From a virus (taxonomy: Duplodnaviria > Heunggongvirae > Uroviricota > Caudoviricetes): a stretch of 11,058 nt of DNA. Within the stretch, counting starts at the first letter, position 1; each line of letters begins with the position of its first letter. The position numbers were made by a program. The stretch lies in the IMG/VR virus record IMGVR_UViG_2695420763_000009. The stretch is one strand, 5' to 3'. This document shows positions 6,001 to 11,058 of the stretch, in pieces.

Positions 6001-9000
6001 CGTAATTCGTGGTGTGAAAGTACCAGGCGGACGGCTTGGAATAAAAATCACCGAACTGGAGAACGCATGAACGCCACAATTCAAACGATACCAGAGCTTC
6101 TTATCCAGACACGAGGCAATCAGACCGAAGTGGCGAGGATGCTTTCCTGCGCAAGAGGAACAGTGCTCAAGTACAACCGAGACAGCAAAGGCGAGCGTCA
6201 TGTAATAGTTAACGGCGTCCTGATGGTGAAACAGGGCAAGAGGGGAAGACGATGAGACTCGAAAGCGTAGCTAAATTTCATTCGCCAAAAAGCCCGATGA
6301 TGAGCGACTCACTACTGGCCACAGTTTATTGGTTTTCGTAACTGAGTCATTTTATTATTTTATTGCAACTTTTAATCTTTTATAGTGCGAAATAAATGGA
6401 GCTGGCATTCATTTCGCACTTTATGTTTTTGTTGGACTTATGTTATTTTGATTGAATTCAATTCAGTTAAAAAAAGAAGGCGATTGCTCCATTTATAAAT
6501 GAATAGTCATCCCCTGTCTTGAATTCTGATGTTACTTTATTAAATGCTAGTGTGAAGGCTACAGGTGCATACCCAATTGTTGCGCCAACTTGATATTCAT
6601 CAACAGTTTTGTTTAGCGATACTGTTGTTTGTTTCGTCTGTATTGTTTTTCCTTCGAGAGTATAGTTGCGATTGACATCTCGTCTTTCCATACCTGCAAA
6701 AATCTTGTATTTGAATCCGCTTGTATCGGACATATGCATTAAACCACGGGGAGCCAGCAGACCAAAGCCATTATCCGAATTGAAGGTTTTATCATTACCA
6801 ATGGCAATGGTTGCGCCATATGCTACATATTGAAATAAGTTTCCAGTAACAGCAGAAACTTCAGGGTATAATCCAACATTAGCACCTAAAATATCCATAC
6901 TTGGTGTCATGGATAGCATCCCTTTTACAGTATAACCGTAGCGATTCTCTATTTGATCATCCCATGCATGATATTTTTCTGCCCCAATAATCTCATGAGC
7001 TTTATTTTGTACTTTCTGACCGCCTGCGTCGGGGCCAACAACACCTATGTCAGTACCTAATCGATAGCGAATCCAGTCATTCGCAAGGGAGTTCCATTCA
7101 ATACCAGTGTGAGTGTATGCACTAAAAGCTCTGTCTCCAGTTACAGCTGTGTTGTGTCTTTTATTACTGCCTGATGGAGAGTAAATATCTTGCGCAATAT
7201 GGAGAGATAATTGGCTCGAGTCTGAGATATCGTGGCTATATCCCAGAAATAAGCCTTGTGAGTAATCATCTCTGTTTTCATGTTTATTGCCATAAATATC
7301 ATTAAGTATTGGTTGAAACTTCCCTGCATCATCATTTGCTAATGATAATGCAAGGCTGTTCGCGATAGCTGAACACGTGGTAAATGACAGAGCAATAAAG
7401 ACGCCAGCGATGACACTTTTTTTCATATGTTATTGTCTTCCTTTTTTTTGAATGGCGCGCGTATTTTACATACATGAGTTTGTAATACAAGGTGCGTAAT
7501 CAATATGATGTTTTATAATTGCGTGAGACAATTGATTTATTCGTTTTTTATTGCGGTTTTTATTATCTTTTAATGTAACGGTGTTTTTATTAAGTGTGTT
7601 TGCGTGGTGTTTTATGTTTTTTTATAATTTTTATTTTATTAAATTTAAAAGCATTAGTAATGGCTATTCTATATAGCAATATAAGAACTGTTACAAAAAA
7701 AGGGGGGGCAATTACAGGTAGTTATGGATGATGAGTGAAACAGATATTGGAGAACCGGGGAATGAATGATGTCTGAGTCTTATATATCAGAACTCCTTCG
7801 CTGTCGCTGGGGGCTCCTGTGCTTATGTCGTTTCCCCGATTCGGTTTTGAACGATTACCGAATGTTGAAGAATTATGCCAAAATATAGAAAGGATTTACT
7901 GCATGAATACCCAATATTTACAGTATGTTCGTGAGCAACTTATGGCAGCTACTGCTGACTTGAACGGAGCAACGAAAGGCCAGCTCGAAGCCTGGCAGGA
8001 GCATGCACAATTTGATACTGGTACATACAAACGAAAGAAGCCGCGCATTCTGGATGTGGTAACTGGCAAGATGATTACGCTGGATAATACGCCGACTTCC
8101 GGTAAGCAGTCGTACGCAAAAGGTTCATCCATTGCTTTGGTCAGCCCGGTTGAATTCTCAACCTCTTCATGGCGCCGCGCGGTTTTGTCTCTCGATGAAC
8201 ATCAGAAAGCATGGTTGCTTTGGTGTTACAGCGAAAGCGTTCGATGGGGGCATCAGGTCACCATAACGCAATGGGCATGGAGCGAGTTTAAAGATTTGTT
8301 AAGTAACAGAAAAATTGCAGGTAAGACACTGGATCGCCTGAAGACGTTAATCTGGCTGGCTGCACAGGATGTGAAGAGCGAACTTGCAGGGCGTGAGGCC
8401 TATGAATACCAGACACTGGCATCATTGGTGGGAGTGACAACAAAAAACTGGTCCGAGACATTTACTGAACGCTGGGTTGCAATGAAGCACATTTTTCTAC
8501 AGCTTGATAGTGATGCTTTATTGCTTGTGACGAGAACACGTTCAAAACAAAAGGCAGCATTTTTACAGCAAAATATTGCAAAACTGGATTAAAAGCCATA
8601 TACTTCATGCAAATTTGGTATGTTGTAAAAAATGTATAAACCCGCTGCCGAGTGGGTTTTTTTTATGCCCTGAGTTGTACTTGTACGGTAAACATGCTGG
8701 CTGCTATGTAATAGAGTTTTTTTAGCCTGTAACCTCTTGACGGCATTGAATTGCTTTTGTTATGAGTTGTAAGCCAATGTTATCATCTTGTATTGGGGTG
8801 GTTATGAAGGATGGTGCGCTGCTCAGGAGTTCTTCACTTTTTATTGCCTACATGGGATGCCTTGGATGGGGGAGTGCTTATTTCTATGGATGGGGTACTT
8901 CTTTTTACTACGGCTTCCCATGGTGGATTGTAGGTGCTGGTGTTGATGATGTTGCCAGAAGTTTATTTTTTGCAGTTATCGTCATTGCTATATTTCTTAT

Positions 9001-11058
9001 CGGTTGGGGTATTGGTGTTGTATTCTTTTTCGCAGTGAAAAGAAAACATTCTATGCAAGAGCTAAATGTATTTCGCCTTTATTTTGCTGTGGAATTATTG
9101 TTTGTGCCGGCAATTATTGAGTTTTCTATATTGAGACAGAAGATTCAGGTACCTCTTTTGCTACTGTCAGCAGCGATTGCGCTGGCGGTTACAATTTCGA
9201 TAAGATCTTATGGGCGATTTTTATCGGTATCATGCTTCTATGATAAGCCATTTATAAAAAAACATTTTTTTGAGATTGTGATGATTGCTTTTGTGGCATA
9301 TTTTTGGCTTTTTTCATTTCTGACAGGATATTACAAACCACAGTTTAAGAAAGAATATGAAATGATTAATTATAATGATGGTTGGTATTATGTTCTTGCT
9401 CGTTATGATAATTGTCTGGTTTTGTCTACTTCTTTCAATGCAGGTAGTAAAAGGTTTGTCATTTATCAATCAGCACAAGATAAGAATCTTCAGGTTGATA
9501 TTGTAAGGACCAGAATTTAATTGGCTGCATAAATAATATTTTAAGTTGCAAGTTGGCTATTCGTAGGAATAGAACCTTAGGCATGCTGAATGCGTTTTCT
9601 GAACATTGTTTTATAAACTGTGTCTGCTTGCTGTTGTGATCCTGCTTTTAGTGATGGTGATGATGGATTTCACCAGCAGGATAATGTTGGTACTGACTGA
9701 TGGCGCTCTGGTCTGCGGCATTGTGGTATTGCTGTGGCCGATGATGAAAGAACAGAATGAATAATTCTTGACTTTTTTGTTTACTGTTTATTAAAAAATC
9801 AACCGCATGGTGAATCCTCCTTGGAGGGGCTAAATGATCGAGTTTTAAGGGCACGTAGCGAGTTCTGTTTGATCATTGCAGAACTTAGCGGGAGGCGCCA
9901 TGCGTACATCACTAGTGTTATTCCTTTTATCATTTTCCTTGTGAGTTCTGGCTGCGCATTGCGCAGCCTTTTTTTTATGACCTGCCACTGGCAGATGGTC
10001 ATCCTGTGATTTGATTCCGCTTCCGGCTTTTTAACTCTGTTCCTCTACACGGGAGAAATTCGATGTCGATTAAACATTACGATGTTGTCAGGGCGGCGTC
10101 GCCGTCAGACCTTGCGGAAAAGCTGACACACAAACTGAAAGAGGGCTGGCAGCCATACGGCGGACCGGTTGCCATTACGCCGTACACACTGATGCAGGCG
10201 GTGGCTATTGAAGGAGAGCCACAGGTCGGCCCTTCATCTGAGCCGGATTGGTACTACGTCATCGTACTGGCCGGGCAATCCAATGCCATGGCTTACGGTG
10301 AAGGGCTTCCGCTGCCGGATTCATACGATGCTCCGGATCCGCGCATTAAACAGCTGGCGCGCCGCAGTACAGTGACGCCGGGCGGGGCTGCCTGCAGATA
10401 TAACGATATTATTCCGGCTGACCACTGTCTGCATGATGTGCAGGATATGAGTACGCTGAATCATCCGAGGGCTGACCTGAGCAAAGGGCAGTACGGCTGT
10501 GTCGGCCAGGGTTTACATATTGCCAAAAAACTGCTCCCGTATATCCCGAATAACGCGGGGATCCTGCTGGTACCATGCTGTCGTGGTGGTTCGGCATTTA
10601 CCCAGGGCGCGGAGGGGACATTCAGCGAGTCCACGGGGGCCAGCCAGGATTCGGCACGCTGGGGGGTGGGCAAGCCGTTATATCAGGATCTGATTTCCCG
10701 CACAAAAGCGGCATTGCAGAAAAATCCCAAAAACGTTCTGCTGGCCGTCTGCTGGATGCAGGGTGAGTTTGACATGAGCGCCGCCACCCACGCACAGCAA
10801 CCTGCGCTGTTTACAGCCATGCTGACACAGTTTCGTGCTGACCTCTCCGTGTTTAACGCGCAGTGCCATGGTGGCAGTGCTGCAGATGTGCCGTGGGTTT
10901 GTGGTGACACGACGTATTACTGGAAAAATACATACGCTACCCAGTACGACACCGTGTACGGCGGGTATAAAAACAGGGAGAGTGAGGGCGTTTATTTTGT
11001 GCCCTTCATGACAGACGGTAACGGCGTCAATACCGCCACTAACGCGCCGGCAGAAGAT

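Follow-up and report, generated by a model that had tools for sequence, protein, structure and literature searches.

The 11,058-nucleotide stretch of DNA in the IMG/VR virus record IMGVR_UViG_2695420763_000009 (hereafter the window) covers the early-right and late-left portion of a lambdoid prophage, with cI, cro, cII, O, P, ren, the nin genes and rusA. Downstream of rusA follow lpxR on the minus strand, ylcG, the late antiterminator gene Q, the open reading frame (ORF) that is the subject of this study, tfpB (8804..9520, plus strand), a DUF3927 gene and, cut off by the end of the window, a sialate esterase gene. From position ~6400 to its end the window shares 99.8-99.9% DNA identity with phage 434 (OL657226) and with prophages of Escherichia coli O26:H11 and O157:H7, and by this identity the segment from Q to the esterase gene corresponds to the phage 434 segment. 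The last position of the ORF is 9520, and alignments of homologue N-termini support a start at 8804: in proteins from Escherichia, Citrobacter, Cronobacter, Klebsiella, Enterobacter, Salmonella and Yersinia the first methionine is always equivalent to 8804. The product of 238 amino acids (aa), also the one proposed in a first-pass annotation of the window, is therefore better supported than the 247-aa product called from 8777 in both GenBank and RefSeq.

The assignment of this ORF to the TfpB/STM1630 family (PF27470) is close to certain. The sequence cluster that contains this exact 238-aa protein, together with all 108 homologues, carries a precomputed Pfam assignment to PF27470 ‘TfpB’, which supersedes the first-pass statement that no family was recognised, and the protein matches PHROG 1521 (E = 1.7e-154), a group that bears no function label. 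Scans of the protein against NCBIfam, PADLOC and a Pfam-A set without the PF27470 model returned no match. The family comprises 108 clusters at 90% identity, with 70 representatives among 1.84 billion proteins, and a profile built from 50 members recovers it with E values down to 1e-109. Members are typically about 235-250 aa long, and alignments place in the window protein both the N-terminal family motif AY..G..YYG.P and the C-terminal pattern Y(Y)(V/I)L...(L/I)(I/V)L...F.I of the beta domain. The name TfpB (PF27470) presumably denotes a ‘toxin-flanking’ ORF beside the heat-labile enterotoxin (LT) operon. The name given in one old record is ‘protein tfpB’, and that in one PGAP record is ‘STM1630 family protein’; literature searches for ‘TfpB’ returned nothing relevant, and a paper on an LT-II prophage does not mention the gene.

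Family members with a named source come from Enterobacterales and from Haemophilus ducreyi (Pasteurellaceae). The TfpB protein of phage 434 is identical to that of the window, and the phage 434 record already labels the gene a putative membrane protein. At an identity of at least 99%, tfpB is present in 679 complete E. coli genomes, O157:H7, O26, O145 and O111 among them, and about one in five complete E. coli genomes has some member of the family. When 50,697 phage records were searched by tblastn, tfpB was recovered from 434 and 2B8 only, and a scan of genome contigs returned just six loci.

Hydropathy analysis of TfpB revealed four strong hydrophobic stretches in addition to a Gly/aromatic N-terminal stretch. 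A first AlphaFold run with close homologues alone was poor (predicted local distance difference test, pLDDT, 59.9); with distant relatives added, the model reached a pLDDT of 78.9 and a predicted template modelling score (pTM) of 0.73. It contains five helices (residues 10-36, 47-78, 89-111, 116-139 and 155-181), followed by a C-terminal domain of five strands (184-235, roughly 55 residues), and the first helix with its loop is both Gly/aromatic and strongly conserved. In counts over 40 family members, lysine and arginine were concentrated in the N-terminus and in loops 2 and 4, which puts these segments on one side of the membrane, so the C-terminal beta domain is predicted to lie in the periplasm. 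It can be regarded as nearly established that the tfpB product spans the inner membrane with five transmembrane helices and has a beta domain of roughly 55 residues, and the first-pass description (about five transmembrane segments, a Gly/aromatic-rich N-terminus and a C-terminal domain) agrees with both the hydropathy profile and the model. Topology prediction and profile and structure searches, all of which had been proposed with that description, were carried out here; the former gave the five helices and the predicted periplasmic domain, and the latter matched no lysis family and no solved fold. Profile comparison with Pfam, NCBIfam, PHROGs and PADLOC likewise found no defence, exclusion or lysis family, and fold comparison of the model found no match to any solved structure.

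The late promoter of the prophage lies upstream of tfpB and not, as first proposed, beyond it. A promoter scan identified pR' at 8576..8604 (plus strand), with a -35 element TTGCAA (8576-8581), a 17-nt spacer and a -10 element TATACT (8599-8604), overlapping the last codons of Q. The 3' end of Q and the DNA that follows it were aligned from five Q82-type loci with differing next genes (holin, tRNAs or tfpB), and a sixth locus was added later; all six keep the promoter, an AAA start, a TGnTAT extended -10-like element, an A/T-rich run and an intrinsic terminator. Judged by homology, the window transcript would start with AAA at about 8611, and its initial transcribed region (8611..8635) carries a sigma-70 pause element, TGgTATGTT (8616-8624, +6 to +14), then a run rich in A; positions +24 and +25 are G and T. 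These features fit those published for phage 82 pR', which has an initial AAA, an extended -10-like element, a pause at +25/+26 and U at +25 (PMC5001585; PMC4914094). The GCC published at +15-17 of phage 82 pR' is found in the Q82-type relatives, whereas the window has GTA there. Downstream, the terminator scan and folding energy define a hairpin (8638-8659, -12.5 kcal/mol) with a T-run; since this element (8638..8664) sits after pR' and the pause element and occupies the equivalent place in all aligned Q82-type loci, the comparison identifies it as tR', the first intrinsic terminator of the late transcript, rather than as a terminator of the Q gene. On sequence grounds, the segment 8576-8664 adjoining the PF06323 Q gene fits a Q82-type pR' with a predicted sigma-70-dependent pause.

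While this late-operon anatomy is directly visible in the alignments, its activity is what we infer from them. RNA polymerase starting at pR' would pause near +25 and, without Q, stop at tR'; with Q, it would read through into tfpB, the DUF3927 gene, a PasD-like small RNA (sRNA), the esterase gene and the lysis genes. Because pR' lies upstream, tfpB would be part of the Q-dependent late transcript, as its first gene, and strongly induced by Q in lytic growth, as stx is. Two further observations concern the start of this transcript. In the window lineage, to which the functional phage 434 belongs, the stretch from the pause site to tR' is about 18-22 nt (by alignment) shorter than in other Q82-type loci (L002-L005 and L039 of our set), and as a result the tR' stem begins only about 3 nt past the predicted +25 pause. 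The predicted RNA from pR' to tR' (about 55 nt; 8599-8668) gave a weak full-length match to Rfam STnc240 (28.2 bits, gathering score 55, E = 0.85). By analogy with the short pR' sRNAs of Shiga toxin (Stx) phages, STnc240 may correspond, in a related Q type, to the terminated RNA of the late promoter.

Between tR' and tfpB lies a conserved upstream block (8733..8803) that contains two overlapping sigma-70-like candidate promoters and a Shine-Dalgarno-like GGGGTGG. The first candidate pairs TTGACG (8737-8742) with TGtTATGAG (8758-8766), the second TTGTTA (8757-8762) with TGtTATCAT (8778-8786). The string CTTGAC(G/T)...TTTGT(T/A)ATG 5' of the start codon is invariant in five contexts: the window, the LT plasmid of enterotoxigenic E. 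coli (ETEC), an iro island, the P0019 prophage and L039. Homology with the ETEC LT-plasmid copy begins at 8733 and with the iro-island copy exactly at tR'. The conserved block is the best evidence for a promoter of tfpB's own, which it makes plausible, and since this sigma-70-like block moves with tfpB to plasmids and islands, the lysogen is likely to express the gene at a low level or in response to host cues. Some features speak against such a promoter. Promoter-like matches in this AT-rich stretch occur at chance frequency (6 found, 6.8 expected in shuffles), the first candidate lacks the usual T at the last -10 position, and the second would give merely a leader of about 10 nt. Of the promoter-like elements first assigned to tfpB, what holds is the conservation of the block, not the number of matches or the quality of the -10 hexamers.

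Several lines of comparison indicate that tfpB is accessory, moron-type cargo of a lambdoid prophage, and ordinary in kind. The Q82-type phages PhiR47_2, 606R7, PPompW and RothD pass from tR' directly to holin or tRNA genes, without tfpB, and in the viable phage 434B the region replaced by DLP12 DNA includes tfpB and plaques still form. The G+C content of tfpB is 36.1% (30% at third codon positions), against 46% in Q, 49.5% in the replication/nin region and 56% in the esterase gene. The first-pass view of tfpB as AT-rich, moron-like cargo is borne out by these absences, by the base composition relative to the flanking genes (46-56%) and by the spread of the upstream block to plasmids and islands. 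That annotation had also described a self-contained unit bracketed by terminators at 8638-8664 and 9950-9976. Both terminators exist, but the first is tR' and the second ends a separate sRNA gene; with the DUF3927 gene and the sRNA promoter lying between tfpB and the second terminator, the two do not bracket a unit, and no terminator-like site was found in 9521-9605, directly after tfpB. Prophage envelope proteins such as those of the lambda morons bor and lom and the membrane exclusion proteins RexB/SieB are dispensable for lytic growth, and their genes differ in base composition and have their own promoters. TfpB resembles none of them in sequence, profile or fold, and tfpB differs from a textbook moron in having no terminator of its own directly after the gene.

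The element at 9768, first taken for the late promoter, was rejected in that role given the STnc100 match described here and the finding of pR' at the 3' end of Q. Rfam STnc100 (RF02076) matches over its full length at 9775-9979 (41.4 bits, E = 2.5e-6, under the gathering score of 47), preceded by a -35 element TTGACT (9768-9773) and ending in a terminator (9950-9968 plus a T-run to 9976, -15.9 kcal/mol). Phage 933W has an STnc100 of 207.7 bits, which starts 75 nt past stx2B and immediately precedes the esterase gene, a placement also stated in PMC12370729, and the window region aligns with the 5' part of this STnc100. Here the window is 97.7-98.3% identical to phage 2B8 (98.3% in the sRNA region), where PasD, an Hfq-bound sRNA of enteropathogenic E. 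coli that is related to STnc100 and validated by northern blot, lies directly 5' of the esterase gene; more than 98% of PasD loci have both Q and LpxR no further than 10 kb away (2026 preprint). STnc100 copies are abundant in uninduced EDL933. By these alignments, 9768..9979 (plus strand) is a PasD/STnc100-family sRNA gene to which both TTGACT and the 9950-9976 terminator belong. A 62-codon ORF at 9821-10009, annotated in phage 434 as a ‘putative membrane protein’ (CPT_434_70), lies almost wholly within the sRNA including its terminator; it is probably not a gene, and RefSeq makes no call there. In 933W the anti-sRNA AsxR (L037, 4985-5037, minus strand, 88 bits) abuts STnc100 on the opposite strand; the corresponding part of the window gave no match to AsxR.

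The remaining genes around tfpB were assigned as follows. The lpxR gene (6467..7426, minus strand) encodes an outer-membrane lipid A 3'-O-deacylase (Pfam LpxR, 7e-40; annotated as LpxR in phage 434 and in the O26 and O157 prophages) and is a separate moron just 5' of ylcG-Q, with AT-rich flanks that reach 7765. Q (7903..8592, plus strand; Pfam Phage_antiter_Q, 1e-91) encodes a Q82-type late-gene antiterminator and is 100% identical to the phage 434 gene labelled ‘Q82-like’. A short N-terminal fragment of a lambda-type Q gene at ~6252-6350, between ninH and lpxR, is labelled an incomplete antiterminator in 434, O26 and O157; judging by this remnant, the lpxR-ylcG-Q82-tfpB block may have taken the place of an older Q module. 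Downstream of tfpB, 9606..9764 (plus strand) encodes a DUF3927 small membrane protein (Pfam 3e-14; PHROG 1470), ‘TciB’ in the 434 record, from a TTG start with no obvious Shine-Dalgarno sequence before it. A literature search for ‘TciB’ found nothing relevant, and no source could be traced for the label ‘inhibition of cell division or resistance to colicin’ that PHROG attaches to it. Among the loci fetched, DUF3927 follows tfpB only in the near-identical allele, for which reason a functional two-gene unit was rejected. The esterase gene (10063..11058, plus strand), a nanS-p-type sialate O-acetylesterase gene annotated in 434 as ‘SASA family carbohydrate esterase’, enters the window with its 5' part and is 67% identical to the 933W esterase (tblastn).

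To see which genes accompany tfpB elsewhere, its relatives were inspected in 14 enterobacterial clusters, chosen for diversity and not at random. In half of them (7/14) tfpB lies 210-280 nt after a Q gene, and these Q genes come from three Pfam families. AB5 toxin operons stand alongside it in 3/14: eltAB adjoins the relative on ETEC plasmids (L036, 2987-5714), an Enterobacter cloacae prophage has the order stxA-stxB-tfpB with a stx1-type operon (L032, 3540-5714), and a Cronobacter prophage has an LT-II-like operon 5' of tfpB and a pertussis-like operon immediately 3' (L033, 2655-7091). In the last of these, a Q82-type Q gene has left a 3' fragment between the LT-II-like operon and tfpB. Of the 14 clusters, 4 have LpxR adjacent or close by, and one of the 4 also carries PmrD; besides the arrangement of the window, lpxR and tfpB are convergent (L024-L026), divergent (Citrobacter rodentium, L027) or, with an LpxR remnant, divergent (C. 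freundii, L028). The two genes, lpxR and tfpB, show similar DNA divergence, at about 72-74%. Other neighbours are iroBC with bor, STb or, in Salmonella, sseJ, and on the Shigella invasion plasmid (pINV) 106 plasmid records match tfpB. A 138-aa secreted ORF beside tfpB in pWR100, the record inspected, was considered as a toxin B subunit and rejected, having no similarity to one. Relatives also occur at non-mobile chromosomal sites, rpoH-mqo in H. ducreyi and the cybB-frmA site in C. rodentium.

The relative with most data is Salmonella STM1630, 46% identical to the window protein and equated here with homologue P0074 through a published primer sequence. STM1630 is bound by H-NS, has its own start site and is expressed in medium inducing Salmonella pathogenicity island 2 (SPI-2) and in macrophages. 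Published work describes the gene as dispensable in LB, its mutants as attenuated in calves and chickens, and its deletion as changing intramacrophage replication; in Salmonella ST313 its expression is lost through promoter single-nucleotide polymorphisms, with no macrophage-replication phenotype in that strain. Like the window protein, STM1630 has 238 aa and five helices followed by a C-terminal beta domain, and its gene is likewise AT-rich and horizontally acquired, beside the virulence gene sseJ. Unlike tfpB in the window, it belongs to a chromosomal islet and not a prophage, and has a mapped start with a long leader and SPI-2-type expression; its upstream region cannot be aligned with that of the window. 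The ETEC protein, encoded by the LT-operon ORF, is 59% identical and keeps the promoter-like block from 8733, but its gene is on a plasmid, divergent from eltAB, flanked by insertion sequences and without an upstream Q or pR'.

A close structural counterpart of the locus is found in 933W. There, stx2AB and tRNA genes occupy the slot that tfpB and DUF3927 occupy in the window: after Q, pR' and tR', and before an STnc100-type sRNA and a nanS-p esterase gene. Dual control of stx by a gene-proximal promoter and by Q read-through is the established model. The two loci have different Q families and different pR' promoters (933W Q in the one, the Q82 type in the other), and their cargo differs too, a secreted AB5 toxin versus a polytopic membrane protein; read-through into tfpB is a prediction.

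Taken as a whole, the explanation we favour (the family identity, the transcriptional wiring and an envelope-acting role in lysogenic conversion or as a virulence accessory) has somewhat better than an even chance of being right. Its functional part, that TfpB acts on the envelope as an accessory protein linked to virulence cargo, is held more tentatively, at a little short of even, and is still preferred over a structural, lysis or replication function for the phage. The genomic contexts and the STM1630 data point more towards host interaction than towards phage defence. Several findings weigh against this explanation, in addition to those on the candidate promoters. No experiment on the window allele was found; transcription from pR' or from the proposed tfpB promoter, topology and function are all inferred; the clusters surveyed were not a random sample; and the proximity of toxins, LpxR and other cargo may reflect nothing but a shared insertion hot spot 3' of Q. 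As LpxR is a repeated neighbour, a tie to LpxR-type outer-membrane and lipopolysaccharide (LPS) remodelling is plausible as a lower-probability refinement. An enzymatic role of TfpB in lipid A modification appears unlikely, since the widest alignment holds no conserved polar or catalytic residues.

An alternative is that TfpB is a superinfection-exclusion or abortive-infection factor that blocks entry of incoming phage DNA or kills infected cells, as the first-pass annotation had guessed. Membrane proteins in moron positions often do so, the gene is AT-rich cargo with a promoter-like block and is found on plasmids and islands, which are vehicles of defence genes as well, and a family without assigned function is compatible with such a role. 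None of the tools used lent it support: PADLOC, Pfam, NCBIfam and PHROGs gave no exclusion-family match, PHROG 1521 is unlabelled and no fold matched. Relatives at the non-mobile rpoH-mqo and cybB-frmA sites, and a Salmonella relative that is induced in SPI-2 medium and macrophages and has reported phenotypes in infection models, also argue against it, and we consider this explanation unlikely. Somewhat less likely again is a late-phase phage function, in which TfpB would tune lysis or envelope integrity or help to release periplasmic AB5 toxins before or at lysis. This would suit a gene that is the first ORF after Q in half of the clusters, behind three unrelated Q families, that adjoins Stx1, LT-I, LT-II-like and pertussis-like toxin operons and that encodes a predicted periplasm-facing domain. 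However, 434B grows and forms plaques without tfpB, many copies lie outside functional prophages and far from lysis genes, and the protein is unlike holins, antiholins, spanins and endolysins; in the window itself no toxin is near, and the DUF3927, sRNA and esterase genes separate tfpB from the holin gene.

Given comparably little weight is a more specific form of the envelope-acting role, in which TfpB would be a dedicated envelope partner of prophage virulence cargo, either LpxR-type remodelling, periplasmic AB5 toxins or both, and might, for example, promote vesiculation or non-lytic toxin release. Such a partnership would explain why tfpB is found in the first late-gene place behind three unrelated Q families and next to toxin operons. 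The least probable of the explanations considered is that tfpB is a hitch-hiker with little or no current function in E. coli, kept by a recombination hot spot next to Q. Many truncated or frameshifted database copies (e.g., P0094, P0095, P0108), survival in decayed prophage remnants, and the ST313 strain, in which STM1630 is silent and no macrophage-replication phenotype is seen, would all be expected of such a gene. They are set against full-length ORFs with coherent architecture maintained from 100% down to about 20-34% identity, a confident model driven by co-evolution, a conserved upstream block, and retention in major lineages of Shiga toxin-producing E. coli and on Shigella pINV.

For phage 434, the analysis corrects the existing annotation in two places: the late promoter and tR' belong where Q ends, and the ORF labelled ‘putative membrane protein’ 5' of the esterase gene overlaps an sRNA gene. 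The position of tfpB as the first Q-dependent late gene, in the slot that holds Shiga toxin genes elsewhere, would lead to testable predictions of its expression. The Shigella invasion plasmid, toxin plasmids of ETEC and a Salmonella islet co-expressed with SPI-2 all carry relatives of the gene, and the linkage with LpxR and AB5 toxins points to the lipid A profile, vesicles and toxin release as the processes in which TfpB may take part. tfpB is a genuine gene whose family, though recognised, is uncharacterised, and the company the family keeps at the head of the late operon, toxins, LpxR and sRNA genes, makes it a moderately interesting lead.

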